Shown here piece by piece: positions 9,309 through 63,523 of a stretch of DNA of 64,000 nucleotides. The notes beneath the pieces were generated by a model, which saw only the letters and a program-made list of their open reading frames with translations, searched no databases and was not told the DNA's origin. Position numbers and translations under genes: made by a program. Position 1 is the stretch's first letter; every line of letters begins with the position of its first letter. Origin of the DNA: Candidatus Poribacteria bacterium (GTDB taxonomy: Bacteria; Poribacteria; WGA-4E; WGA-3G). The DNA lies in contig CBDANF010000002.1 of NCBI GenBank assembly GCA_965197475.1, positions 576,001 through 640,000 on the forward strand, given 5' to 3'.

Positions 9309-9800
9309 AGTATAATAGTTCCTTATCAATTTTCAGATAACTAGCAATTTTTGACGCAGTATAACTTAATTTGGTTTAAATCAACTGCTCAAAACACTTT
9401 TATGGTTGTCCGTTTAACCAATGTATCTAATCTTTATCACCTACGGTGTGGTTTGCACAAAGAAATATAGTATCCGCAGGGTTTAATACCTTGATGGGAA
9501 TAGTTGAACTTTCTAAATCACAGTGTCTTGAAAGGGAAAATTATGATCGGTTTCACTTTTCTTATGTGTAACTGCCTCTTTAAGACGAAGCATATTGGTA
9601 AAAGTTTAATATACCTACCGAAACGTTTTCACCGCGTAGAATTAAATTTATCGCCTTATCCTATTTTCAATCCACAAACGCAAGAAAATTAACGTGCATT
9701 TCTTTCGAAATTGTAGCCATTTACCCAAAAATGCGTATCATATACTGATCAACGGTTTCGTAATTATTTCGTTTTACTATAAACCGTCGTATTATTCTAT

Positions 9801-10711
9801 TATAGTAGATCCTGAAAATAAGTTTACATTTTCTGTGATTTATGTTAGCCTTTATGATTATGGCATATTCAACAGATGGACGCAAACGCGTGCTTGATTT
9901 CATCAATAATGGTGGCAGTAAAGCCGCCGCAGAACGCACCTTCGGTGTCTCAAGAAGGACGATCTATAACTGGTTAGAAGCAGAAGACCCCTTTGCCTAT
10001 GAGAAGCCGGATACCAAAGGGCCCCGACACATTGATTATGATGCGCTTCAACAACATGTTGCCGATTTTCCCGATAGCACACTCGCCGAACGTGCCAAAC
10101 ACTTCGGTGTTTCAACAAACGGCATCTTTTATGCCTTGGCAAAACTCAATATCACGCGAAAAAAAAGACCACGACCTACAAAGAACAGTGTCCGGTAAAA
10201 CGCCAAGAGTATCTCTCGGCACTTCAACAAGAGACACACGAGCATGGCAAAAAACCGGTTTATCTTGACGAAAGTGGTTTCACCGAAACCGATTTCCGTC
10301 GGTATGCTTATGCCCGAAAGGTGTCCGTGTTGAAGATAAAGTGCCAAGTCATCGGTATACCACCACAACCTTGATTGCGGCACGTCTTGATGGATGTTTC
10401 ACAGTGCCTGTGCTTTTCGAAGGTAGTTGCGATGCGGTTGCCTTCAACGCATGGCTTTCGGAGATGTTATGTCCTTTGCTTGACGACAGCCACGTTGTGA
10501 TTATGGATAATGCCTCTTTCCACAAAGGTTCACAAACAGAAGCATTGATCCGGGAATGCGGTGCAAGTTTGTTGTTTTTACCGCCGTATTCACCGGAGTT
10601 GAATCCGATTGAGAAGGATTTCGCTAACATCAAGCGGATACGTCAATACAACGCTGAGACCTCTATTGATGATATTATAAAAGTGTATAAGTAATTACAG
10701 GTTTTACTATA
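9801..10711 (+). mobile_element. IS630-family insertion sequence
   Basis: Imperfect ~28-bp inverted ends tatagtagatcctgaaaataagtttaca / tgtataagtaattacaggttttactata with TA at both ends. HTH orfA, then YLDESG, MDNASFH and LPPYSPELNPIE motifs. Confidence 0.92.
9860..10694 (+). pseudogene. IS630 transposase spread over three reading frames (two -1 shifts)
   Basis: orfA runs from ATG 9860 to the A8 run (10159-10166). The -1 frame then gives KKTTTY...YLDESG...AYARK. A second -1 shift near 10315-10320 is needed to reach the frame holding the rest of the DDE domain. Confidence 0.75.
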
Positions 10712-10827
10712 AGACAAAAGTCTTATGTATAAGTTCGAATTTTCGGAAAAAAATGAGTGGTAGGTCGTTTATTCTGTGTTTTTCAGAAAATTTCACAGAT
10801 AAAGTCGTTTTTTTTTAAACAATTTGC

Positions 10828-12841: not shown

Positions 12842-14318
12842 ATGATGGAATTTGTAAAAGACTATTGGAAATCTTCTCTACTCGGTGCGCTTGGGGCACT
12901 CGTGTTACTCTATATCGGACTTTTTATTTACGATGGACTGACCCCGAGCGCAACACAAGAAGTAGTAGATACAGACACCCACAACGCCGCAAAACCACCT
13001 CCATCCGGTGCAAGACTTGCCGCGCGTATCTACCCCTCGAATCAAACGCGTGCGCACCAAGACAAATACCCGCCAAAACCGTGCACTGAAGAACATTGGA
13101 CCTATCCTCCCCATTACATGTGCCATTCCTGCACCACCACCACTCCCAACAGATGTCAAGACGCGCCTTATACAGCTACGGCGGAAAATGGTTATCGCAG
13201 GAACAATGTATGAAATACTGGATGGTGAAAAAGTTGTAACTGAGGCAGCACATAAAAGAAATTTTGAGATACTCGTTGGTGGTATGACTCCAGAGGATGC
13301 TGTCACCTTCCTTGAAACATATCAAATTTATAACCCTCTCATTTTAGACGAATTGGAACCTCGCCGTGCTATTGACTACCTCTATAAAGTAAGGGCGCGT
13401 TGGAAAGACAGAGAAACTTATGCAAGAGGTGTTCTTGCCAGAGCCCCAGACAACCCGGATGCCCAAATGGTGCTGCTGAGTGCTGAACCGGATAACACGA
13501 TAGCGGCTGCAGGATACCGAGATATCGTTAACAGAGATCCTGAGAATCTTCGTGCACTAAACGGTTTAGGATATCGGTTACATTACGATCAACCAGAGGA
13601 AGCGATTGAATACCTAAAGAAAGCGAACAGTCTTGACGCTACACGCGGGTTGTTTAATTTGGGATTGGCGTCCGAACGCCTCGGCGATGTCAAAACCGCA
13701 TGGCTTTACTACAGGAAGCAGCAAACGATACAGAACGGTGACCTCGTTGAACTACATAAACGCGCCATTGAAATGGGCAACCCGTTGTATAAACCGATTT
13801 CGCGCACACCTTCCTCAATATCTGAATCCGATGAAATGCTAATGGACATTGGAGAGATGACACACGAGCAAACGTTCGCACCGGTGGCAGAAGAAACTCC
13901 ATGGCTACCGGAACTTCCATCCCAGGAACGCCACCCATCGGAAAATCAACTGACAGACAAGGATAGCCAAAAAGCCACACGTGCAGAAGCCATACGTGCA
14001 GAATTTCAACGACAGCAAGCCACCGCACAACAGGAGCTTGACGATTTCCTCAAATGGGCAGAAAGCATCATGAATGCGGAAGATACTAATAACCTTGATG
14101 ACTTCCTATCCAAGGAATTCGCGGCACACCTCAACGGCGGTGATGCACAATTTGCCCCGGAACGCACCGTCCGCGCTTATGAAATGATTGAACGATACGG
14201 TCCCGAAAAAGGCTTGCAACGGCTTAAAACAAAGGACCCTGAACTTGCGGAACAGATGGAACGTCTCCTTGAAGCAAAACAACCATCTCGCCGTAATAAC
14301 TCGCAAAACAGAAAATGA
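12842..14318 (+). pseudogene. Membrane-anchored TPR-like protein with a conserved C-terminal helical domain; apparently frameshifted between 13008 and ~13130
   Basis: AAGGAG precedes ATG 12842, which gives a TM helix and KPPPSG. The TPR-like helices and the C-domain (QQELDDFLKW...DPELAEQM) are in another frame. Paralog 33579-34874 has both parts in one ORF. Confidence 0.65.
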
Positions 14319-14377
14319 AGAATGTCCCAGTGTTTTAGATTTAACCATAAACCCATCATTGAAAAAAGGAGATTCAA

Positions 14378-15979
14378 ATGAGATTTACATGTATTTTAAT
14401 CGGCATCTTGTGCCTTCTATGCCTTTTTAACCATGGAAACACCACCCTGGATGCGCAGCAAACAACATCCATCCAGATCGAACAACCATATCTTGACCCA
14501 AATTGGCGGCCAGAGGCGGGCTACTCACTGACTTTTGAGATAAGAGTCACCGTGCCTGCTGATTTCTCCAGTGGGACGCTGATCGCAGTACTCCAGAATG
14601 TGACTAATTATGCCGGTAAAAGTGGAAATGTGGCTGTCCCATCTGACGAAGGCGGCAATCTGGCTGCAGATCTGAAACTACATCAAACGACAGGCTGGTC
14701 GGGGAGCGAGAGTCAGCTCAGCTACACCCTCAGCGGGACAACAGCATCGCATACAGTGTCCCTCCAAGTTAACTGTAAAGATTATGCTGCCTATGGCGAA
14801 TTAAAATTGACAGCATCCGGATCCGGTTATACATCAAACGAGGTCGTTATAAAAATTCCCAAAGATGACAATGGGAATAAAATTGCCGATGGTTGGCAAA
14901 ACGATGTGGACGAGAACGACGAGAACAGAAGCGAAAATTATGACCCGGATGCCGATGCGGATAGTGGTCCCAATTCCAATTCTAATTTTGGTGATGGCAT
15001 CACTGTAATTAACGAATACAGAGGCCTCAATGTCAGCGGCACATGGACAGATACCGACCCAAACGGATGGGATGTCTTTATCCGATCCAAGGTTGGCAGC
15101 GGTGATGCAGGTGCCTTACCCATGACCGTCCATGATATGTCAGAAACGGAAGTATCGTGGATTACCGGGCGGGTCTATCCTTTTGGAATCGGAAGTCAAA
15201 AGGTTTACGCCATTAGACTTGGAGATACCGCAGATGAGAGATCTAGCGAAACAACACTTGGATCTATGAGACAAGGACCTACCCATAGCTACTCAACGGG
15301 GTGGGTAGATGTGGGGCGGATAGAGGAACATGTAGATAATACAGTTGTAAGTGTCAATGAACGCGATTTTTTAGATGGTGCCATTGCACATGAAATCGGG
15401 CACGCGGTTAATCTCTCCCACTGTCCGGATATTGACTGTCCGAACTGTTATATGTGGCGCCAACCTGATTGGCCAATGGCGTATGTAACCCAATTCGCAG
15501 CGCATCATAATTCAGACTACGATTTAACATACGACGGACACATTTATCTGAGTAGCAGTATTCTTACATTCCCTGATAGAGGGTATAGTAGTAATAGAGG
15601 TGTACATATCCGACAAGTTGAAGACGTTAATGGAGACGGTGTTATCAATATTTCGGACCTAACCATAGTTGCGTCAAAGCTGGGTAGTAGTTGGAGCAAC
15701 AACCATCCTACGGATGTTAACAGTGACAGTAGCACCGATATTTCAGATTTGATGCTTGTGGCACAAGAATTAGGCAATACGGCTACCGAATTTCCACATC
15801 TGCCTGAAGACGTTAATGATGACCGTGTTGTCAATATTTTGGATCTACTCGTGGTTAGTTCAAACCTTGGACAGAGCGGAGCACATGCTGCGGATGTTAA
15901 CTGTGACGGAACCGTTGATATTTTAGATTTAGTGCGGGTGGTATCGGCATTTGGGATGACGGTTGCCCCTGAAGAATAG
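14378..15979 (+). CDS. Secreted zinc metalloprotease-like protein with two dockerin-type domains
   Basis: Signal peptide; HEIGHAVNLSHC..DC..CYM metzincin-like motif; four DVNxDxxxxIxDL repeats. Confidence 0.75.
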   Translation: MRFTCILIGILCLLCLFNHGNTTLDAQQTTSIQIEQPYLDPNWRPEAGYSLTFEIRVTVPADFSSGTLIAVLQNVTNYAGKSGNVAVPSDEGGNLAADLKLHQTTGWSGSESQLSYTLSGTTASHTVSLQVNCKDYAAYGELKLTASGSGYTSNEVVIKIPKDDNGNKIADGWQNDVDENDENRSENYDPDADADSGPNSNSNFGDGITVINEYRGLNVSGTWTDTDPNGWDVFIRSKVGSGDAGALPMTVHDMSETEVSWITGRVYPFGIGSQKVYAIRLGDTADERSSETTLGSMRQGPTHSYSTGWVDVGRIEEHVDNTVVSVNERDFLDGAIAHEIGHAVNLSHCPDIDCPNCYMWRQPDWPMAYVTQFAAHHNSDYDLTYDGHIYLSSSILTFPDRGYSSNRGVHIRQVEDVNGDGVINISDLTIVASKLGSSWSNNHPTDVNSDSSTDISDLMLVAQELGNTATEFPHLPEDVNDDRVVNILDLLVVSSNLGQSGAHAADVNCDGTVDILDLVRVVSAFGMTVAPEE

Positions 15980-16006
15980 CACGTTTGATGCAAGGAGAAA
16001 CTGACA

Positions 16007-18121
16007 ATGAAGACTAAATTCCTTTTGATTTTAACCATTTTGTTTGCGGCACTTACATTTACTCCGAACATTTTTCCGCAAGATTCACCGCAATGGCAGC
16101 TACCCGAAGGTGCGAAAATGCGTTTCGGTAAAGGTAGGATATATGAGATAGCATACTCTCCAGATGGCACGCGTTTGGCGGTGGCAAGCTCCATCGGAGT
16201 TTGGCTCTACGATGCGGAGACTGGTGAGGAGCTTGACCTACTCACAGGGCATACAGGTAGAGTTATTAGTGTCGTATTTAGTCCGGATGGAAAAACAATC
16301 GCAAGTGGGAGTACGGACAGAACTATTCGTCTGTGGAATGTGGACACAGGACAACACATCCGCACGCTTACCGGGCATGGAGGGACGGTCCAGAGCGTAG
16401 CGTTCAGTCCGGACGGGAAAAAAATCGCAAGTGGCAGTAGGGATCATACCCTCCGTCTGTGGGATGCGGACACAGGCACACTCCTCCATAAATTAATAGG
16501 ACACCAGGGTGGAGGTGGTCGAGGCGATGTTTTAGCAACTTATGCCTATCTTAGCGTTGCGTTCAGTCCGGATGGGAAGACACTTGCAGGCGGTAATCAA
16601 ACAAGTTTTATCAACCTGTGGGATGTGGATACAGGCATGCTCCTCCGCACGCTCATAAGGAATTATGATCATGGTGATGTCCTTAGCGTGGTATTCAGTC
16701 CGGATGGCAATAAAATCGCAAGCGGCGGTAGCGACGGCACTATCCGTCTGTGGGATGCGGACACAGGCACACCTCTCTACAGGCTCAGCGGGATTACAGA
16801 GCATTTTGCTTTTGTTAGTAGCGTCGTTTTCAGTCCGGATGGAAAAACACTTGCAAGTAGCAGTAGCCACCTCGGTACTATCCATCTGTGGGATGCGGAC
16901 ACAGGCACACCTCTTCGTATACTCACGGGGCATGCGGAGAGTACTTATAGCGTAGTGTTCAGTCCGGATGGCAATAAAATCGCAAGTAGTGGGAGGGACA
17001 GCACTAGTGACAGCACTATCCGTTTGTGGGATGCCCACACAGGACAACCCATCCGCAAACTCGCTGAGCATTTGTTTTTATCCTCTAACGTTGAGTTTAG
17101 TCCGGATGGGGAAATAATCGCAAGCGGCAGCAACAAAGGTACTATCTATCTGTGGGATACTGACACAGGTAAGCTTCTTCGTCTCCTCACGGGACATGAT
17201 CGTCGGGTCCATAGCGTAGCGTTCAGCCCAGATAACAAAACAATCGCAAGTAGCAGTACGGACAGCACTATTCGTCTGTGGAATGCGGACACAGGCACAC
17301 ACATCCGCACAATCAGAGAGTATGGCGGTAGCGTCGTGTTCAGTCCGGATGGAAAAACAATTGTCAGTGGCAGGAATTACCGCACTATTCATCTGTGGGA
17401 TGCGGACACAGGCACACTCCTCCGCACAATCACATGGGATGCAGTTCGAGGCTTTTATAATGTGGTCCTTAGTCCGGATGGAAAAACAATCGCAAGTGGC
17501 AGTTGGGACGGACCTATCTATCTGTTGGATGCGGACACAGGCACACTCCTCCGCACAATCACAGTGCCTCTAAGTGCTGGCAGTACGCTCGCGTTTAGCC
17601 CGGATGGGAAAAAGCTCGTAAGTGACGGTGGTCGCAACCGCACTATACATCTTTGGGATGTGGACACAGGTACACTTCTCCAAACACTTACATGGAGTGG
17701 AGGTGCTGTCTTTAGCATCGCTTTCAGTCCGGATGGCAAGACAATCGCAAGTGGCAGTAGCGACCATACCATCCGTTTGTGGGATGCCCAAACAGGAGGA
17801 GAACCCCGCCGCGCACTTATAGGGCATACGTATTTTGTTACTAGCGTCGCTTTCAGTCCGGATAGCAAGACAATCGCAAGTGGCAGTAGCGATGGGACTG
17901 TGTTACTATGGGATATTGCACCATCACAACTGTCCGAAGATATTAATGGGGACGGTGTTGTGAATATTCAAGATTTAGTTGCTGTGGCACAGGCTTTTGG
18001 CGAAGCGGAACCCGATCTCAACGACGATGGTGTTGTGAATATTCAGGACTTGATCATTGTGGCATCGGCATTTGGGAATACGGTTGCTGCCCCTAAAGAC
18101 TCTGAAAACTCTGAAGAATAG
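16007..18121 (+). CDS. Secreted WD40-repeat protein (~14 repeats) with C-terminal dockerin, copy A
   Basis: Signal peptide; repeated SVAFSPDG..IASG....IRLWD; two D(I/L)NxDGVVNIQDL repeats. Confidence 0.93.
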   Translation: MKTKFLLILTILFAALTFTPNIFPQDSPQWQLPEGAKMRFGKGRIYEIAYSPDGTRLAVASSIGVWLYDAETGEELDLLTGHTGRVISVVFSPDGKTIASGSTDRTIRLWNVDTGQHIRTLTGHGGTVQSVAFSPDGKKIASGSRDHTLRLWDADTGTLLHKLIGHQGGGGRGDVLATYAYLSVAFSPDGKTLAGGNQTSFINLWDVDTGMLLRTLIRNYDHGDVLSVVFSPDGNKIASGGSDGTIRLWDADTGTPLYRLSGITEHFAFVSSVVFSPDGKTLASSSSHLGTIHLWDADTGTPLRILTGHAESTYSVVFSPDGNKIASSGRDSTSDSTIRLWDAHTGQPIRKLAEHLFLSSNVEFSPDGEIIASGSNKGTIYLWDTDTGKLLRLLTGHDRRVHSVAFSPDNKTIASSSTDSTIRLWNADTGTHIRTIREYGGSVVFSPDGKTIVSGRNYRTIHLWDADTGTLLRTITWDAVRGFYNVVLSPDGKTIASGSWDGPIYLLDADTGTLLRTITVPLSAGSTLAFSPDGKKLVSDGGRNRTIHLWDVDTGTLLQTLTWSGGAVFSIAFSPDGKTIASGSSDHTIRLWDAQTGGEPRRALIGHTYFVTSVAFSPDSKTIASGSSDGTVLLWDIAPSQLSEDINGDGVVNIQDLVAVAQAFGEAEPDLNDDGVVNIQDLIIVASAFGNTVAAPKDSENSEE

Positions 18122-18303
18122 CACGTTTGATTTACCCGAATGGTAGGACGGTTTTCCGCTAAATGCCAGATGCACATTTGGCGTTGATTCATTGTTCCGT
18201 ATCGTTCGCTAAGCCTTTCGTTGCACGAGAGCGGATGGAAAACGCGGAGCGTGCCTGCTACCATGTTCAAATCAATCTGCAAGGAAGTATAAGGAGACAC
18301 ACA

Positions 18304-19524
18304 ATGAAAAACAAGGTTTTTTTGATGTTGACACTATCCATTCTCGTTTTACCCCTCAACTCTCATAGCGACTTTCCTCCGGGGACCATATTTCCTAAGG
18401 ATGTACCGGGGGAGTACCCTGAACCTGTCGAAATACACATTGACGGTGCTGTAGATTACTTACAATATTCACTGGATGGCAAACTATTGGCAGTAGTGGC
18501 TTACCCTGGTTCTGGTCTACACCTCTACAATACACAAACTCTTGAAGAAATCTATCAGATCAAAGCAGAAGAAGGTTTTAATGGGGACTGTATAGCGTTT
18601 AGTCCGGATGGAAAAGTCCTCGCAAGTGGTGGACATCGGGGTAATATCAAGTTGTGGAATGTAGTGACAGGAACACACAAGCAGACGCTAAAAGCCCATT
18701 CAAGGGGTGTATACAGCGTAGCGTTCAGTCCGGATGGACAAACACTCGCAAGTGGCGGGGTAGAGGGATATGTCATCTCAGATGGTGAAAAATTGACTAC
18801 TGGGGCAATCTATTTATGGGATGCAAACACGGGACAACTTCTTCATCGCCTCACGGAGCATAAACGGGGTGTCGCCAGTGTAGCGTTCAGTCCGGATGGC
18901 ATCACACTCGCAAGTGGGAGTTGGGACAACACCGTCCGTCTGTGGGATATAGCAACAGGTACAAACACACAAACTTATATAACAAAGCATCGTAACATAT
19001 TGGGGGTATCGTTCAGTCCGGATGGAAAAATACTCGCAAGTTGGGGGTTGTGGGACAGTATCTATTTATGGGATGCAAGCACGGGTAGTCTTCTTCACAC
19101 GCTTATACGTAGGACAAGTGATACGGATGCCCTTTTTAGCGTTGCCTTCAACTCATATGGTAATACACTCGCCACTGCAAGCGGAGAAGGGGTCCGTATA
19201 TGGGATGTGAATACGGGTAGTTATCTTCACAACATGCCGGAATCTATGAATATACCTCCACGTAGCGTGGCATTCAGTCCAGATGGGCGGACACTCGCAA
19301 GTGGGATGTGGGGCAGCACTGTACGTTTGTGGAATATTGCACCATCACAACTGCCCGAAGATGTTAATGCGGACGGTGTTGTCAATATTCAAGATTTAGT
19401 TGCTGTGGCACAGGCTTTTGGCGAAGCAGAACCGGATTTTAACGGCGATGGTGTTGTTAATATTCAGGACTTGATCATTGTGGCATCGGCATTTGGGAGT
19501 ACGGTTTCTGCCACTGAAGAATAG
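18304..19524 (+). CDS. Secreted WD40-repeat protein (~7 repeats) with C-terminal dockerin
   Basis: AAGGAG precedes ATG 18304 (MKNKVF...); signal peptide; WD40 repeats; dockerin. Confidence 0.9.
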   Translation: MKNKVFLMLTLSILVLPLNSHSDFPPGTIFPKDVPGEYPEPVEIHIDGAVDYLQYSLDGKLLAVVAYPGSGLHLYNTQTLEEIYQIKAEEGFNGDCIAFSPDGKVLASGGHRGNIKLWNVVTGTHKQTLKAHSRGVYSVAFSPDGQTLASGGVEGYVISDGEKLTTGAIYLWDANTGQLLHRLTEHKRGVASVAFSPDGITLASGSWDNTVRLWDIATGTNTQTYITKHRNILGVSFSPDGKILASWGLWDSIYLWDASTGSLLHTLIRRTSDTDALFSVAFNSYGNTLATASGEGVRIWDVNTGSYLHNMPESMNIPPRSVAFSPDGRTLASGMWGSTVRLWNIAPSQLPEDVNADGVVNIQDLVAVAQAFGEAEPDFNGDGVVNIQDLIIVASAFGSTVSATEE

Positions 19525-19545
19525 CACGCTTAATGCCACATAAAC

Positions 19546-19630
19546 GGTAGGAGCGATTTTCAAATCATGACACATTCCGTAGGAGCGATCTCCGAATCGT
19601 GACCGGTCGGGAATCGGAATTCCCTCCTAC
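19546..19630. repeat. Cluster of GTAG-type REP-like hairpins
   Basis: gtaggagcgat...aatc(a/g)tgac twice, plus an inverted gggaatcggaattccctcctac. Confidence 0.6.
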
Positions 19631-19678
19631 CTTTGTCCTGGGTTTGTAATGATTTCCATAAAAAGGAGATATTGGACA

Positions 19679-21778
19679 ATGAAGACTAAATTCCTTTTGA
19701 TTTTAACCATTTTGTTTGCGGCACTTACATTTACTCCGAACATTTTTCCGCAAGATTCACCGCAATGGCATCTACCCGAAGGTGCGAAAATGCGTTTCGG
19801 TAAAGGTAGGATATATGAGATAGCATACTCTCCAGATGGCACGCGTTTGGCGGTGGCAAGCTCCATCGGAGTTTGGCTCTACGATGCGGAGACTGGTGAG
19901 GAGCTTGACCTACTCACAGGGCATACAGGTAGAGTTATTAGTGTCGTATTTAGTCCGGATGGAAAAACAATCGCAAGTGGGAGTACGGACAGAACTATTC
20001 GTCTGTGGAATGTGGACACAGGACAACACATCCGCACGCTTACCGGGCATGGAGGGACGGTCCAGAGCGTAGCGTTCAGTCCGGATGGGAAAAAAATCGC
20101 AAGTGGCAGTAGTGATCATACCCTCCGTCTGTGGGATGCGGACACAGGCACACTCCTCCATAAATTAATAGGACACCAGGGTGGAGGTGGTCGCGGCGAT
20201 GTTTTAGCAACTTATGCCTATCTTAGCGTTGCGTTCAGTCCGGATGGGAAGACACTTGCAGGCGGTAATCAAACAAGTTTTATCAACCTGTGGGATGTGG
20301 ATACAGGCATGCTCCTCCGCACGCTCATAAGGAATTATGATCATGGTGATGTCCTTAGCGTGGTATTCAGTCCGGATGGGAAAAAAATCGCAAGCGGCGG
20401 TAGCGACGGCACTATCCGTCTGTGGGATGCGGACACAGGCACACCTCTCTACAGGCTCAGCGGGATTACAGAGCATTTTGCTTCTGTTCATAGCGTCGTT
20501 TTCAGTCCGGATGGAAAAACACTTGCAAGTAGCAGTAGCCACCTCGGTACTATCCATCTGTGGGATGCGGACACAGGCACACCTCTTCGTATACTCACGG
20601 GGCATGCGGAGGGTGCTTATAGCGTAGTGTTCAGTCCGGATGGCAATAAAATCGCAAGTAGTGGGAATGACAGGACTAGTGACAGCACTATCCGTTTGTG
20701 GGATGCCCACACAGGACAACCCATCCGCAAACTCGCTGAGCATTTGTTTTTATCCTCTAACGTTGAGTTTAGTCCGGATGGGGAAATAATCGCAAGCGGC
20801 AGCAACAAAGGTACTATCTATCTGTGGGATACTGACACAGGTAAGCTTCTTCGTCTCCTCACGGGACATGATCGTCGGGTCCATAGCGTAGCGTTCAGCC
20901 CAGATAACAAAACAATCGCAAGTGGCAGTGCGGACAGCACTATCTGTCTATGGAATGCGGACACAGGCACACACATCCGCACAATCAGAGAGTATGGCAA
21001 TAGCGTCGTGTTCAGTCCGGATGGAAAAACAATTGTCAGTGGCAGGAATTACCGCACTATTCATCTGTGGGATACGGACACAGGCACACTCCTCCGCACA
21101 ATCACATGGGATGCAGTTCGTGGCTTTCTTATTAGTATGGACCTTAGTCCGGATGGAAAAACAATCGCAAATAGCAGTTGGGACGGACCTATCTATCTGT
21201 TGGATGCGGACACAGGCACACTCCTCCGCACAATCACAGTGCCTATAAGTGCTGGCATTCCGCTCGCGTTTAGCCCGGATGGGAAAAAGCTCGTAAGTGA
21301 CGGTGGTCGCAGCCGCACTATACATCTTTGGGATGTGGACACAGGTACACTTCTCCAAACACTCACAGGGAGTGGAGGTGGTGTCTTTAGCATCGCTTTC
21401 AGTCCGGATGGCAAGACAATCGCAAGTGGCAGTAGCGACCATACCATCCGTTTGTGGGATGCCCAAACAGGAGGAGAACCCCGCCGCGCACTTATAGGGC
21501 ATACGTATTTTGTTACTAGCATCGCTTTCAGTCCGGATAGCAAGACAATCGCAAGTGGCAGTAGGGATGGGACTGTGTTACTATGGGATATTGCACCATC
21601 ACAACTGTCCGAAGATATTAATGGGGACGGTGTTGTGAATATTCAAGATTTAGTTGCTGTCGCGAATGCTTTTGGGGAAGCAGAACCGGATCTCAACGAC
21701 GATGGTGTTGTTAATATTCAGGACTTGATCATTGTGGCATCGGCATTTGGGAATACGGTTTCTGCCACTGAAGAATAG
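19679..21778 (+). CDS. Secreted WD40-repeat protein with dockerin, copy B (near-identical to 16007-18121)
   Basis: Long identical nucleotide stretches shared with copy A; AAGGAG precedes ATG 19679. Confidence 0.93.
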   Translation: MKTKFLLILTILFAALTFTPNIFPQDSPQWHLPEGAKMRFGKGRIYEIAYSPDGTRLAVASSIGVWLYDAETGEELDLLTGHTGRVISVVFSPDGKTIASGSTDRTIRLWNVDTGQHIRTLTGHGGTVQSVAFSPDGKKIASGSSDHTLRLWDADTGTLLHKLIGHQGGGGRGDVLATYAYLSVAFSPDGKTLAGGNQTSFINLWDVDTGMLLRTLIRNYDHGDVLSVVFSPDGKKIASGGSDGTIRLWDADTGTPLYRLSGITEHFASVHSVVFSPDGKTLASSSSHLGTIHLWDADTGTPLRILTGHAEGAYSVVFSPDGNKIASSGNDRTSDSTIRLWDAHTGQPIRKLAEHLFLSSNVEFSPDGEIIASGSNKGTIYLWDTDTGKLLRLLTGHDRRVHSVAFSPDNKTIASGSADSTICLWNADTGTHIRTIREYGNSVVFSPDGKTIVSGRNYRTIHLWDTDTGTLLRTITWDAVRGFLISMDLSPDGKTIANSSWDGPIYLLDADTGTLLRTITVPISAGIPLAFSPDGKKLVSDGGRSRTIHLWDVDTGTLLQTLTGSGGGVFSIAFSPDGKTIASGSSDHTIRLWDAQTGGEPRRALIGHTYFVTSIAFSPDSKTIASGSRDGTVLLWDIAPSQLSEDINGDGVVNIQDLVAVANAFGEAEPDLNDDGVVNIQDLIIVASAFGNTVSATEE

Positions 21779-23860: not shown

Positions 23861-24946
23861 TTATTGTGCGGACTTCTCCCTGTTACACCTTTTACAAAGC
23901 ATCTGGCAGTTATCCTCGTTGGTCTTGCCGCCCTCGGACCAGGGTGTGATATGGTCTGCTTCCATATCTTTGATTGCGAATTCGTCGTCACACTTGACAC
24001 AAATTCCTGACTGTTCTTCGTAGACCTTTTGCTTCATGCTGTCTGAAAAGGCGCGTATGTTCAGGTGTTTCTCCTCGCGAGTCAGAATGTACGGGTATAT
24101 ACCCGCTTTCCGTTGCACATCATCGTCAAGGACAAGGCGGGCGGTTTCCTGCTCAATCTCATTAGCGTCAAGGTCGGCATCTCCAAAGTCGTTGTGCAGC
24201 GAACCCCAATCTACGCCCCTCATCATTTTTGGTCTTGTGTTCGTGAAAGTGGATTCAACCCAATTGATCACCGATTGAAAATACCCCCATAGGGGCAACG
24301 CGTTTTCGTCGTGCTGATGCTTCCCCATGTAGTCTTCAATCGAGTCTTTGCTGACCCACTTAATCACTGTCTCCAAGTACTCTTGTCGGATTGGCGAACC
24401 ATTGACATAGGCATTGCCGATTTTGTATGCAGCGCAACCAGTCCGACTAAAATATCGCTTGGCATTTGACAACCAGGTTCCGGCGTAAACAGCATTACGC
24501 AACTCTTGATTGGTCAACTTCTTTCCCGCAATGTTTATAGTCTTGAACCACTCTAACTTTTCGCTGTCTGTCCCGGTACAGACGTAGACCGTCAACTCGT
24601 AATCCAATATCAATTCTTGTTTGTCTGATGGGAGATTGTGGAAGTATTTACCTTCGATCGAGAAATCGCCATCCACATACTGAGCAACGGAGATTGTACG
24701 CTGCTGTCCGTCAATGATCTCGAACGTACCGTCTTCCCGGTCTGCCCAGTACATCACGTTCAACGGGAATCCTTTCAGGATGGAGTCAATGACGGCGTTG
24801 CGTTCCTTGTCGTTGTAGATAAACTCCCGTTGAAATGGCGGACGTATATCCAATTTGCCGCCATACCCGGTTACACCGTCCTCGCGAGCGTCCTCGTAAT
24901 CCTCGACAATCTCTTCCACCGTGAGGTCTAACAACTCGATTTTCAT
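23861..24946 (-). CDS. DUF262 (GmrS/ParB-like) + HNH endonuclease
   Basis: IRPPFQREF, IIDGQQR and F..IN..G motifs; C-terminal CxxC...DHITPWSEGG..N...LC..CN. ATGA overlap with the methyltransferase stop. Confidence 0.9.
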   Translation of the reverse strand: MKIELLDLTVEEIVEDYEDAREDGVTGYGGKLDIRPPFQREFIYNDKERNAVIDSILKGFPLNVMYWADREDGTFEIIDGQQRTISVAQYVDGDFSIEGKYFHNLPSDKQELILDYELTVYVCTGTDSEKLEWFKTINIAGKKLTNQELRNAVYAGTWLSNAKRYFSRTGCAAYKIGNAYVNGSPIRQEYLETVIKWVSKDSIEDYMGKHQHDENALPLWGYFQSVINWVESTFTNTRPKMMRGVDWGSLHNDFGDADLDANEIEQETARLVLDDDVQRKAGIYPYILTREEKHLNIRAFSDSMKQKVYEEQSGICVKCDDEFAIKDMEADHITPWSEGGKTNEDNCQMLCKRCNREKSAQ

Positions 24947-25908
24947 TGCTGTATCCTCCTGTTGCGGATAACGATTCTGAAATAGGGACATTTGCCGTTT
25001 ATGCTCAAATCCTTATCGTCGTTTCCTTTTCTAAACCGAATTATCTGGAATTGATCAGGGTTGTGCTTGTCCAAGAAGGTAATCGGCACGCCCATTTCTC
25101 CAGCATAATCTACTGGGATATCAGACGTTTTACCCACGTTGATCGCATCGTAATTATCGTACTTCGGATATTCATCAGGAGAGTATTTCTTGTAAAGGAT
25201 TAGGTCTTCGTGCCGCTTCTTATGGTCGAGGTTGGTAAACCAAACAGCATTCCCCAATCTGCCCTTGACGACATCATCCACCAGTCGGTAGGCACTGCCC
25301 TCCTTCTTGTTTCTAACCAATTCTCTTGCATAGTCTTTCGGCACATCAAAAAGCATATCTTTGCCAGCCGGACCATGACCAAGCCACAACCTGTCACTCT
25401 TGATTAGGGGAAATACCTCTTTGTATGTTATCGCGTTCATGCTCCCAATGACGACAAATTTTTTGTCGTATTCGACCAGTTGCGTGATATACTCCCTGAA
25501 CAATGAAAACGGCGGATTTGTAACCACAATGTCTGCCTGTTTAAGCAACTCAATACATTCGCGGCTCCTGAAATCGCCGTCTTCCTTGAGTTGAAATTTG
25601 GTGGATTCTGTTCCATTGCCGACATACTCAAGTCCGGCAGCGGTTTCCATGTCGTGTTTACTGAACATATCTATCTGCCGATTTTTGTAGCAGGTTGTGA
25701 TCAGTTTTTTGAGTCCAAGTTTCGCGAAATTCCGCTCAAAGTAGTGAGAGAAATTGCTGATGGTGGGATCGTCGCAATTGCAGTAAACAGTCTTGCCGCG
25801 AAAATGCTTCCTGTAATGCTTTAGCTCTTTCTCGATGTCCGGGAGTTGTGTGTAAAATTCATCTTGCTTTGCTCTATTCGCAGCGTGCAGAGACTGATTC
25901 TTTGCCAT
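24943..25908 (-). CDS. Adenine-specific DNA methyltransferase, EcoRI family
   Basis: DEFYT, VYCNCDDP, GDFRS.EC, IVVTNPPFSLFREY, YDNYDAI and MGVPITFL. Confidence 0.92.
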   Translation of the reverse strand: MAKNQSLHAANRAKQDEFYTQLPDIEKELKHYRKHFRGKTVYCNCDDPTISNFSHYFERNFAKLGLKKLITTCYKNRQIDMFSKHDMETAAGLEYVGNGTESTKFQLKEDGDFRSRECIELLKQADIVVTNPPFSLFREYITQLVEYDKKFVVIGSMNAITYKEVFPLIKSDRLWLGHGPAGKDMLFDVPKDYARELVRNKKEGSAYRLVDDVVKGRLGNAVWFTNLDHKKRHEDLILYKKYSPDEYPKYDNYDAINVGKTSDIPVDYAGEMGVPITFLDKHNPDQFQIIRFRKGNDDKDLSINGKCPYFRIVIRNRRIQQ

Positions 25909-46757: not shown

Positions 46758-49326
46758 CTAAACTGATGAAGGACGTTCTTGCACTACAGGAATGACGTAA
46801 CTCCGAATTGTCACACCGTCCACTGTTTCTGTCTCTGCCAACGGTTGTGGCTTCTCGCGATGATCAAACACAACATAATAGCCCTCCATAGTTTCTTCTA
46901 ATTCCATATATACAGCGAGTTGCTTTTTACCTGCGGCGTAGCGGTTACTTCCTTCCCAAATCTTGGTTTCAACGATGTATTTTTGCTGATTGTGGATGAG
47001 GAGAAGATCCATCCTGCCTCGTCCTGTCTGCACTTCAAGGTACATGTTTCCGCCTACGCTGCGGACAAACTGCTCAAGGTAGGCATAAAGCAGATGCTGT
47101 CCAACATACTCCTTCGGTGTATCCGGAACTTGCAAGATGCGAAAACCCACACGAGCGATAAAATCCCGGAAGTTATCAAGTAGGGTTACCATATCAATCT
47201 GTCCCGTGGACGTGAGGTAATCCAAAAAACATTCATCGCGCTCTTCAGAGAAATACGCATTCTCCAACCCATTGACTGTCGGTTTGAAAGTCCTTATGAT
47301 ACGGTAGAGATAAATTGGATTGACGATTTCACACATACCGTCAGGTGCCTCTCGGATAACACCGTACGTGGCGAGTTCACTGATGATGTCGTCATCAAGG
47401 TTGAAATCCACACCTTCCTCACGCGCCATTATTTTCATCAACATACTTTCAAATCGACGGTCTCTACGGATATTAGTGTTCCGTCCGCGAAGGAGCTGCG
47501 TATGTGCTTCTGAAAAGTGTAAGGGTGTAATGGTTTCGGTTTTGGGAATATTCATCTCCTCAGTGAGTATCTGCGCGAAGCGGTTCACAAGCACAAGTTG
47601 CCCCGCAGGCTGCCTATGAATAGATGCGATCACCTCCGGTGCAAAATCTTGGCCTACTTCGTCCGTATACTGACAAAGTAGTTCCGCTCATGTCAAGAGT
47701 AAGTGCTTTTGACGAGTTTTGCTATAAAATCAACACTGACAGCTTTTAGATTCATGACGAACTCACAGATTGCGACGTAACCGGCGAGGAACTTTTTATG
47801 AACGCCACGAAAGGGACGAAGGAAGTTTCGCAGCGTCGTCCAGGCACCTTCAATCGTCCTTGTATGGATCTCGTAAAGACCATCACCGTCTGCGTCTCTT
47901 GCCCACTCGCCATCCTTATGGAGAACAATCTCACGGGCGCGCTGAATACGGTTATAGCCACGCCAACCATCCGTATACACCGTTGAAGTCGGCAACGTCC
48001 ACTGATGAACGTGTGTTGAAAGCGTCGCAGAATCGGTGTGCCGCACAACACGTAATCTCAGGAGACCGCTTTCGCGACCTTTCGTCCCAACAATAGGCGG
48101 ACGATCATTGTCATAAGTCCCATGTCCCCTGCGTTTATTGCCACGCCGACGCGGCGGATCCGAAGCATCAACGTGCTTATCGCCTTTTTCACCGGCGTTT
48201 TGAAACATCTCATCTGTTTCGACTTCAGCATCAGGTAAAGCAGCTTCGGGTTGTATCTGCTCTGCCGAAGTTTGGAGTTTACGTCTTATAGAAAGAACGG
48301 TTTGACGACTTAGACCCAGTTCACACCCGAGTTGTGCACTTGAAACACCTTGACAGACACCGCGCAAAAGCAGAACGACCTGTGAGGGACGAAACTGCGT
48401 GCCAGCAAAGACCGTCCCGGTATAGAGGTTGTAGATGCTCTCACAGTGTTTGCAGCGATACACTTGTAGACCACTTGTTTCAGTCGGACGGAACTTGCGT
48501 GCCTCCGCCACGCTCGCTTGGCATTTTGGGCAACACAGCCCTTGAAGGTGGAAATGATCCAACACCCACGCTTGAGTTTTTTCTTCATCCATGAGAGATT
48601 GTATTGGAAAGTCCATAGGTAACACGCTAACATAACTTTGAAAAAATAGCACTTACTTTTTACATGAGCCAGTAGTTCTTGGACCTGTTGTAACGTAAAG
48701 TTTGGTAACCGGAACTCATCTTGGATATTAAACGGTGAAACAGATCGGTCATAGTTAAGTTGACTGATACTCTTAACCCCTACAATCCCAACACTGTGTG
48801 GGCATTGAAGTTCATCAGAAAGATAAATGTGGCGGAGTGTATATAGAAAATCACTCACAACAACATCTTGCGGGATGCCATCAAATTCGTCAATGAGTAA
48901 CACAACTTTCTGATTGCCGAGCAAACTCACTAATTCTTCAAAGAACGCTAACATCGAAAAATGATCGCTTAACTGTGCATCCTCCAAAAATTGCGTTAAG
49001 TCCTCGGTCTGCTTCATTTCCCTTTTTTGGAGGACATACTCAATTTGCCTACGTATCATTTGAGAGAGTCTATCATAAAAAATAGGAGGCGAGGAATTAC
49101 GCATTATTTGGAAATCCAACTGAATAGGGAAATAGGTCGGATCTTCTGTGGTGAGGACATCAAGAGCAAACCGGAAGAAAGTGGTCTTTCCGGTCTGACG
49201 TGGCGCAAAGAGAACGATATACCGTCCATCTTTCACACGGGTGATGAAGTCAGCAATTTCTTCGGTGCGTGGGACAACATAGTGCCGGTCAGGATACACG
49301 CGACCTTGAGTTCCAAAACGCCTCAT
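46758..49326 (-). pseudogene. AAA-like ATPase with a C-terminal PD-(D/E)XK-like domain, interrupted by IS1595
   Basis: APRQTGKTT, LLIDEFD, SPFNI and GRMDL...IVETK. Removing the IS and one TSD restores the frame (VQELL|CQYTDE). Confidence 0.88.
47685..48670 (-). mobile_element. IS1595-family element (transposase 47693-48616)
   Basis: TIRs (c/g)gctcatgt(c/a)aa(g/a)agtaagtgc; perfect 8-bp TSD agtagttc; zinc ribbon, VETDE, YTDG and IEGAW. Confidence 0.95.
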
Positions 49327-62377: not shown

Positions 62378-63516
62378 CGCAATAAGTCGTTTTGGACTTG
62401 GAAGTTTTTATTTTTCAGATTTCTCACGTTATACTTTCGGTGAGAAGCTTCTCAAAGATGTTGGTTTCTCGGTAGTTATATTTATAGCCTGCCTCTGCGA
62501 GATACAGGGGCGTGTATCTTGTTGAGTAGTGGTGTTGTTGTCCATACCATGCCCTCTTGACGAAAGACCAAAAGCCTTCCATCGTATTGGTATGGATGTC
62601 GCCAGCCTCCCATTTCTCACTACGGTTAAGTGTCTCATGTTTCATTTCCTTACCGATTTCGTTGTAGCTTCTATACTGATCGGTAATGAGTTCAGAATCT
62701 TCGGTATTGACGAATCTGTTGATGAAGTCGGAGATCGTCTCACCAGTGGCGTTGGATACGAGTTGTGCGATGGCGTGTCCACCACGTGCGACTGCGCCCA
62801 GCACGGCATCTTTAGCGGTGCCGCGTCCGCGTTTACGGGGTTCACCATCCTCCCGGTCATAGTCTTTGCGACGCTTACCACCGATATAGGTTTCATCTGC
62901 TTCAATGACCCCTTGTAGTAGGACATTATCCTTTCCCATCTCTGTGCGTATAGCCATCATTAGACACCAAGCAGCTTTCTGTTTCATCCCTAAATCGCGC
63001 GCAAGTTGATGGGAGGACAAACTTTTCTTTGCGTTTGCCATGAGAGCGATAGCGAGAAACCACTTTTGGAGCGGTATCTTCGTGCCGTGAAATATTGTGC
63101 CGTGTGTCACCTTGAATGTAGCACGGCAATCGTGGCAGTTCCAGCGTCCGACACGCCCAACCTCGTGTTCGTTCCGCCTTCGGACGTTTAGACTTGGACA
63201 ATGCGGGCATTCTGGCGATTCTTTCCATCGGAGCCGCTCCAGATATTCGATGCAATCCTCTTGCGTTGAGAACGTCTTCATCACCTTGATTAAATCCATC
63301 AGAAAACACTCCTGTTTTTTGGAGTTGCATTTTTCTGATAGTTTCTGATACAATATCAGATAAGTGTGAACCAGAAAAGCAACTCGCTTTTTTGAGTTTC
63401 AAATAGGGGGTTGATACCCCCTATTTTCTTACTGATATTATACTATGAAAACCCTTTATTTACAAGGGTTTAGCGCACTTTTCCAACTTTTGTCAAGTCC
63501 AAAACGACTTATTCCG
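62378..63516 (-). mobile_element. IS1595-family element (transposase 62424-63299)
   Basis: TIR cg(c/g)aataagtcgttttggacttg; CPHC zinc ribbon, IEADETYIGG, ITD and TNTMEGFWS; no TSD. Confidence 0.93.
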
Positions 63517-63523
63517 TAAAGAA

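Follow-up and report, generated by a model that had tools for sequence, protein, structure and literature searches.

The fungal HNWD NLRs of Podospora anserina, HET-E and HET-D, are cytoplasmic HET/NACHT-WD40 receptors whose blades reach identities of up to 100% and undergo shuffling both inside a gene and from one gene to another, and codons 7, 9, 25 and 27 of their repeats, placed atop the propeller, were described as being under positive selection (Paoletti et al., 2007, PMC1805685). In Nostoc, the WRAP protein (Npun_R6612, PDB 2ymu) consists of 14 near-identical blades arranged in two 7-bladed propellers and makes up the C-terminal portion of a cytoplasmic STAND ATPase (PMC9218822). In Poribacteria, WD40 domains were reported to be highly abundant, many of the proteins carrying signal peptides and a C-terminal sorting domain of the Por secretion system (Kamke et al., 2014, PMC3909097; see also PMC8163846). 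A further point of reference is the clostridial cellulosome, in which the cargo consists of glycoside hydrolases carrying type I dockerins and the multi-cohesin scaffold-like proteins are anchored by SLH domains or sortase signals. Here, a stretch of 64,000 nucleotides from a Candidatus Poribacteria metagenome-assembled genome (MAG) is analyzed, namely positions 576001–640000 of contig C2 (CBDANF010000002.1), called the window below; coordinates are window positions unless prefixed by a contig. The subject is three genes that lie on the same strand in the open reading frame (ORF) list of the window: two near-identical copies, A and B, each encoding a predicted-exported double WD40 propeller followed by a type I dockerin, and a shorter WD40-dockerin gene, C, between them. 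The amino acid differences between such copies gather at four top-face positions per blade, corresponding to the four fungal codons, and the copies probably diverged by diversifying selection for different binding specificities on the ligand face, that is, by neofunctionalization of paralogs.

The MAG comprises three contigs and 5.70 Mb, at 92.7% completeness and 6.97% contamination. A third copy, D, follows the paralog E2 on another contig (C3:3709632-3711722), and its protein is 98.4% identical to A and 95.6% to B. Two more groups of near-identical 14-blade dockerin paralogs are present, E1/E2/E3 (93–97% identical) and F1/F2 (97%, with F3 at 86%), and being separate from A/B/D they serve as independent replicates. 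Altogether, 131 ORFs of the genome have at least three SPDG-type motifs, and 28 of these also have a dockerin motif. The closest homologs in the species collection belong almost all to Candidatus Poribacteria MAGs, the best being 71% identical (L044); in 12 genomes of the same genus the best match was at most 57% identical, so that the A/B group is specific to this lineage and the changes among A, B and D are not polarized by a close outgroup.

Before the dockerin, the codon alignment of A and B shows substitutions in 28 codons, a single codon inserted in B and silent changes in 7 codons. An earlier reading of the window, made from the sequence only, had counted roughly 28 amino acid changes against about 7 silent ones by hand; both figures proved exact apart from the inserted codon, and every change listed there is present (FVS/SVH, ST/GA, G/N, YNVV/LISMD, ST/IP, W..A/G..G, R/S, RDS/NDR, SST/GSA, SGS/NSS and S/R). 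Of the three copies, B has diverged furthest, its propeller holding 24 non-silent and 4 silent codons that are specific to it. The location of the changes was assessed on an AlphaFold2 model of A built from a 19-row alignment (mean predicted local distance difference test 81.9, predicted template modeling score 0.75), in which 56 strands form 14 four-stranded blades that are followed by two dockerin helices. When strands were assigned by DSSP, 17 of the 31 propeller residues that vary among A, B and D fell in the D-A or B-C loops, which make up 24% of the residues (binomial p = 0.0003), and the clustering at the predicted top face that the sequence-only reading had proposed was thereby confirmed. 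The remaining variable residues comprise two in bottom loops and 12 in strands, five of the latter lying where strand A or B ends on the top side (313, 402, 416, 497, 498) and four making up the YNVV/LISMD patch.

The same analysis was extended to the pooled groups A/B/D, E1/E2/E3 and F1/F2, each column being placed in a structural class relative to two anchors in every blade (the S in SPDG, and the W in the LW[DN] motif of strand C). The D-A and B-C (top) loops comprise 523 columns, of which 46 are amino-acid-variable and 4 silent-only, compared with 37 and 22 respectively in the 1254 columns of the rest of the propeller (Fisher p = 4e-7 for density and p = 3e-4 for the ratio of variable to silent-only columns). 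This ratio was 23:14 in strands and 14:8 in bottom loops, the top and bottom loops differing from each other with p = 0.005. The clustering at the top face is thus real and is replicated within the genome. Four positions per blade carry much of it, S-7, S-5, W-7 and W-5, which form two pairs, one straddling the V conserved at the beginning of strand A and the other the D conserved in the B-C turn; hot spots of this kind are called R1, R1-2 and D-1 and match the arginine pocket of WDR5. The most variable three of 40 registers were S-5 (9/42), W-7 (7/42) and S-7 (6/42), and at two S-5 sites the three copies carry three different residues (S/H/N and G/N/D). The HNWD counterparts of S-7, S-5, W-7 and W-5 are codons 7, 9, 25 and 27 in Paoletti et al. 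(PMC1805685).

At these hot positions, 25 of 168 pooled columns are amino-acid-variable and none is silent-only, the three groups contributing 11:0, 9:0 and 5:0. With the non-silent fraction expected under neutrality computed from the codons at the hot sites, the excess is significant at either transition bias considered (binomial p = 0.0018 at kappa 1, where 0.78 is expected, and p = 0.0004 at kappa 3, where 0.73 is expected). The top-loop positions outside the hot four gave 21:4, which does not differ from neutrality (p = 0.38). Loci taken from other Poribacteria genomes, among which four pairs 88–99% identical were found, served as a control: in three between-genome pairs (two genes of L039/L055, and L047/L048) the ratio of variable to silent columns was 7:7 for the hot positions, 17:24 for the top loops and 39:82 for the remaining propeller columns. 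The difference between the paralogs and these homologs at hot positions (25:0 vs. 7:7, Fisher p = 0.0002) indicates that the sites are not simply unconstrained, and the selection at variable top-face sites suggested by the sequence-only reading is supported by both comparisons.

The way in which the copies evolve can be followed from the sites at which one copy departs from the other two. The odd copy shifts along the gene: B equals D in the first third, A equals D and B is specific in the middle, and B again equals D in the first dockerin repeat, a mosaic that was also detected by a runs test over 49 sites along A/B/D (p = 0.0009) and that shows the copies to exchange tracts. Within that dockerin repeat, a conversion tract is marked by 7 nucleotide sites, all in a 28-nt stretch, at which A alone differs; the sequence of the tract in A is that of the dockerin of gene C. 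The 3' end of B is 87% identical to the 3' end of gene C, and that of A 77%. Comparison of A with E1 (L132) gave a dS of 0.16 at the signal-peptide and dockerin ends (16007-16130 and 17930-18121) and of 0.5–1.3 in the propeller, which points to homogenization of these cassette ends across otherwise diverged paralogs.

Recombination or conversion is seen between whole paralogs and not between blades. The repeats had at first been described as highly similar in DNA, which holds only in part; the 14 blade cores of A have a mean nucleotide identity of 63% (39–79%; 55% at third positions, 53% in amino acids), values that are high among WD40 proteins at large yet far below HNWD near-identity. Exact copies of the variant patches with three flanking codons were sought elsewhere in the genome; none of the 15 patches specific to B, none of the 5 specific to D and one of the 4 specific to A had such a copy, and the single match concerns codons 234-235 (GGC AAT), equal to blade 7 of the same gene. 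The search for donor words also gave one generic 15-mer, the 42-nt and 36-nt words around the LISMD patch occur only once in the genome, and no A blade has a partner in E1 or F1 with an identity above 0.89. The proposal that the copies were diversified by repeat conversion is not supported, given blades only 63% identical in DNA and B-specific patches that have no donor in the genome.

The main alternative to selection is that constraint was only relaxed, the changes gathering where the fold tolerates them and new specificities playing no part, a possible account that we hold to be a good deal short of even chances. It is consistent with whole-gene Nei-Gojobori dN/dS (omega) values below 1 (A-B 0.89, B-D 0.97, A-D 0.28), with the neutral ratio of top-loop positions outside the hot four and with a hot-position omega near 1 (0.32–1.72) in deeper paralog pairs; moreover, dN/dS is inflated between very close bacterial sequences. 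Against relaxation stand hot positions above neutral expectation while equally exposed bottom loops remain at 14:8, and the balanced counts of the between-genome homologs, and a pair without any hot-position change (L051/L052, below) shows that these are not free-running sites. The selection signal is site-specific, whole-gene dN/dS not exceeding 1, and it can be traced in deeper pairs, where hot-position omega was 1.72 in F1-F3, 1.12 in H1-H2 and 1.25 in A-E1 (saturated) and strand omega was 0.27–0.38 in the same pairs (0.07–0.38 over all five deeper pairs). Because an amino acid excess at hot positions is combined with between-genome constraint at the same sites, diversifying selection is the best explanation.

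Several points weigh against selection nonetheless. Omega over the whole gene is below 1 in all three pairs, and at hot positions it was 0.72 in G1-G2 (a non-dockerin pair) and 0.32 in C-C2. The counts are small, since the 25 columns perhaps represent about 22 independent events (adjacent changes may be single mutations), and the hot positions were mapped after the A/B data had been seen, the E and F groups alone giving 14:0, or p of about 0.03 (0.78^14). The case is built on column counts and Nei-Gojobori estimates, and "top face" is defined by strand order and textbook WD40 topology. In L051/L052, a within-genome pair of another MAG (97% identical) and the sole such pair examined, the handful of propeller changes fall in bottom turns, at strand ends and in a single long D-A insertion, and none at a hot position; hence the pattern does not hold in every case, and the sites do not represent hot spots of mutation. 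The control from other genomes is also incomplete, as the motif rule saw only 6–12 blades per foreign protein and classed the other columns as "other."

Two further mechanisms could place non-silent changes in a binding face. In blade shuffling and homogenization of the HNWD type, hypervariable sites would be reassorted from a common pool; the four variable positions per blade are shared with HET-E/HET-D, codons 234-235 of A may represent a micro-conversion from blade 7, and whole paralogs do exchange tracts, but the identities of the A blade cores, set against HNWD blades that reach 100% (PMC1805685), the 0/15 B-specific and 0/5 D-specific patches with a copy elsewhere in the genome, and proteins with neither a NACHT nor a HET domain make it very unlikely as the source of variation here. 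Targeted hypermutation by a diversity-generating retroelement or similar device would also yield clustered and mostly non-silent changes in the binding face, as observed, but it is scarcely credible: the reverse transcriptase family PF00078 had 0 matches in a genome that is 92.7% complete, the variant patches were found to have no template copy, and the substitutions are of all types and not limited to adenine. An assembly artefact, by which strain variants of one gene would have been placed in tandem or on another contig, is highly improbable as well. The estimated contamination of the MAG and short-read contigs with letter combinations outside the assembly (at 20194, the only X1 and X3 contigs to cover the position read A where B has C) are compatible with it, but A and B are parted by another gene and differ in their 5' flanks, D lies behind E2 on another contig, and near-identity is limited to cassettes of 2.1–2.6 kb with different flanks, at whose ends the similarity stops. 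Additionally, contigs from public runs X1, X3 and X5 span all four junctions of the A-C-B locus, namely that between the upstream HExxH gene and A (X3 record 10), A-C (X1 record 4), C-B, which is crossed only by a contig of the RNA library X5 (record 22), and B-downstream (X1 record 8, X3 record 15). The assembly of 5.7 Mb is like the same-genus sizes of 4.3–6.1 Mb, so that no large strain duplicate is included, and two other paralog groups show the same pattern. Distinct flanks and contig-crossed junctions thus speak against the strain-variant artefact of which the sequence-only reading had warned; A, B and D are real, recently duplicated paralogs, and selection on their ligand face remains the reading we favor.

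The assembled short contigs of these runs bear out copy-specific letters as well as junctions but do not phase the variants, and the other letters found on A in them are mostly D or B states. Pieces identical to the window were found in contigs of two sponge metatranscriptome libraries, X5 and X6, where DNA carry-over is possible. X1 and X3 contigs at 20194 (also at 17504) match no assembled copy, for example in joining the silent state of A at codon 172 of B to the B states of codons 234-235; such unassembled combinations may be further haplotypes or the result of ongoing conversion.

The architecture of A and B is supported by Pfam PF00400 (WD40), which matched A with 383.9 bits in 11 stretches and B with 382.9 bits in 10, and by 14 SPDG anchors in each protein. 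Type I dockerin matches exceed the gathering score of PF00404 (22.9) in A, B and C, the last with 37.2 bits. A Foldseek search with the model of A returned 2ymu_A as the best match (42% identity, E = 5e-57), followed by double 7-bladed propellers (1nr0, UTP proteins). No Pfam family matched the N-terminal 48 residues of A, in which the model shows a helix at 2-18 and a low-confidence linker at 15-29; in A and B, MKTK followed by a hydrophobic stretch of 14 residues would be a Sec signal peptide, judging from the translation. A, B and D end 10–20 residues past the dockerin and, like C, lack a C-terminal TIGR04183 domain, an NCBIfam search of the tail of A giving only a weak dockerin match. In the same genome, 20 cohesin matches exceed the cut-off, several of them within WD40 or leucine-rich repeat (LRR) proteins. 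The cohesin proteins L127, L128 and L129 end in the type A sorting domain of the type IX secretion system (T9SS): L127 (C3:51953-54049, 698 aa) has three cohesins, a dockerin and TIGR04183 at 33.7 bits, another combines LRRs, a cohesin and a dockerin, and another a cohesin with Ig-like domains and Spondin_N. Other WD40 and cohesin proteins of the genome carry TIGR04183 at 33.7–34.2 bits. We infer from this domain content that A, B, C and D are exported and may dock onto cohesin-bearing proteins attached to the envelope; a complex prediction of the first L127 cohesin with the A dockerin scored 0.05 against a mark of 0.34 and weighs neither way.

The A-C-B locus is one of five loci that harbor a repeated module, comprising a weak-TPR protein, a predicted-secreted HExxH protein that bears dockerin repeats, and between one and four genes of the WD40-dockerin type (Table 1). 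The upstream module genes are 85–91% identical in DNA between loci, and gene C is 75% identical to its counterpart at C2:647515 in the sister locus. Searches of Pfam, NCBIfam and PDB sequences with the HExxH protein yielded nothing beyond the dockerin and a sub-threshold metzincin motif, with a weak Pfam M54 match and an archaemetzincin at E = 0.54 among PDB sequences that were otherwise dockerins; atlas leads pointed to reprolysin/M43 clusters with scores of 0.80–0.82, under the level that counts. The ORF of B extends over 19649-21778, and the start homologous to that of A is the MKTK at 19679.

Table 1. Coordinates of the A-C-B locus, its features and the loci of the repeated module.
Feature	Position	Strand	Description
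Copy A	16007..18121	+	704 aa; predicted signal peptide, 14 WD40 blades in two 7-bladed propellers, type I dockerin
A predicted Sec-type signal peptide	16007..16081	+	MKTK, 14-residue hydrophobic core, then ...NIFPQ; from translation
A propeller region	16112..17914	+	residues 36-636; 31 residues amino-acid-variable among A, B, D
A type I dockerin	17936..18064	+	two Ca-binding repeats; Pfam PF00404, 29.1 bits
Gene C	18304..19524	+	shorter WD40 protein with dockerin, between A and B; Pfam WD40, 156 bits
Copy B	19679..21778	+	699 aa from MKTK; architecture as A
B-specific patch LISMD (A and D: YNVV)	21128..21142	+	one inserted codon; start of strand A, blade 11
B type I dockerin	21611..21739	+	Pfam PF00404, 29.0 bits
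Upstream HExxH (HEIGHAVNLSH) gene	14378..15979	+	predicted secreted, dockerin repeats; putative metzincin-like protease; Pfam dockerin, 65.3 bits
First gene of repeated module	13008..14318	+	436 aa; Pfam TPR_8, 19.9 bits, under cut-off; paralogs at C2:1093071 and elsewhere
Module locus (window)	13008-21778
Module locus	C2:639524-648918
Module locus	C2:1093071-1098821
Module locus	C3:2799849-2805905
Module locus	C3:3704337-3711722

Opposite the WD40 genes, in both copies, the minus strand has open frames of 104–184 aa (16532-17071, 17078-17392, 20204-20743 and 20948-21502), which look like a by-product of the codon composition of the repeats and not like genes. Just downstream of B, on the minus strand (23861-25908), lie a gene resembling those of GmrSD_N + HNH endonucleases and one for an EcoRI-type adenine methyltransferase (Pfam 73 and 427 bits), probably a restriction-modification or defense pair. 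The window also contains three elements resembling insertion sequences, each present in many near-identical copies in the genome: one at 47675-48671 (32 copies at ≥99.5% identity), one at 9796-10712 (16 full-length copies at 92.6–100%) and one at 62378-63517 (7 copies at ≥99.5%). The ORFs of the first and the last match the IS1595/ISXO2 transposase family, and the element at 62378-63517 abuts the start of the next WD40-dockerin module.

Put together, these observations allow a mechanism to be proposed. Gene duplication has yielded predicted-exported double-propeller dockerin copies that kept the scaffold (strands and bottom turns) while their amino acids changed chiefly at the canonical ligand-contact positions of the top face, and the copies swap segments by gene conversion, the signal-peptide and dockerin ends staying homogenized. 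The dockerin may then plug the propeller into cohesins, which abound in this genome on proteins with a T9SS type A sorting domain at their end, so that the propeller variants could be displayed together with the HExxH protein that is encoded alongside them and likewise bears a dockerin, in an assembly at the cell surface or outside the cell. The wider proposal is more speculative: the family may constitute an extracellular cohesin-dockerin repertoire of propeller "receptors" whose new specificities come about as genes duplicate, copies convert one another and positive selection acts on the four residues per blade that are also diversified in the fungal immune receptors, and which might act as interchangeable modules for target recognition, bringing surface molecules of the sponge host, of phages or of prey to a protease on a common scaffold. 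If true, bacteria would have here a secreted equivalent of a variable receptor repertoire. The idea, put forward in the sequence-only reading, of a secreted repertoire of variable-specificity binders diversified by repeat conversion and selection survives in its signal-peptide-like tag, its top-face variation and its selection, whereas repeat conversion is not supported.

The genomes of sponge symbionts are marked above all by eukaryote-like repeat proteins, and the locus offers a concrete case for asking what such proteins bind and whether they adapt to their targets: three natural variants with about 30 residue differences, nearly all on one face, allow the partners to be compared directly. 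A full-text search, with subscription-only papers and PDF supplements falling outside it, found no literature linking sponge-symbiont WD40 proteins to dockerins or to diversifying selection. The poribacterial WD40 proteins of Kamke et al. belong to the same phylum and the same class of proteins, and A, B and D differ from them in ending at the dockerin without a sorting domain; in the passages of that report drawn on here (PMC3909097) dockerin and cohesin have 0 occurrences and selection is not discussed, and supplementary tables S7-S9 of the same report may list such genes; the passages of PMC8163846 name neither module. With clostridial cellulosomes, the genome studied here shares type I dockerins on the cargo and multi-cohesin scaffold-like proteins with an anchoring domain, but the cargo comprises WD40, LRR and HExxH proteins, the anchors are T9SS type A domains and cohesin binding is putative. 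WRAP, the closest solved structure, belongs with A and B to the SPDG-type WD40 branch common in cyanobacteria, and many NB-ARC/NACHT-WD40 proteins are among the best sequence matches of A and B. In contrast to WRAP, A and B are stand-alone, predicted-exported propellers with a dockerin, and their blades are differentiated.

The HNWD receptors share with A, B and D the variation at four top-face positions per blade and the excess of non-silent changes, and as described for them one hot pair flanks a conserved residue in the D-A loop and the other the D of the B-C turn, likewise here (PMC1805685). Unlike HNWD, A, B and D carry a predicted signal peptide and a dockerin and are devoid of an NTPase domain, their blades are 63% identical in DNA, and duplication and conversion act on the gene as a whole; having no NACHT/STAND domain, the family is not a member of HNWD or of the NLRs. 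The likeness to HET-E/HET-D drawn in the first reading therefore stands as far as the same four positions are concerned and fails for the concerted evolution of blades (at most 79% DNA identity, and no donors). The HNWD analogy holds for the site of variation, not for how variation arises or for family membership. The hypervariable-site pattern of fungal NLR WD40 domains can thus arise without homogenization of blades, here in predicted-exported bacterial proteins with docking modules of the cellulosome type.

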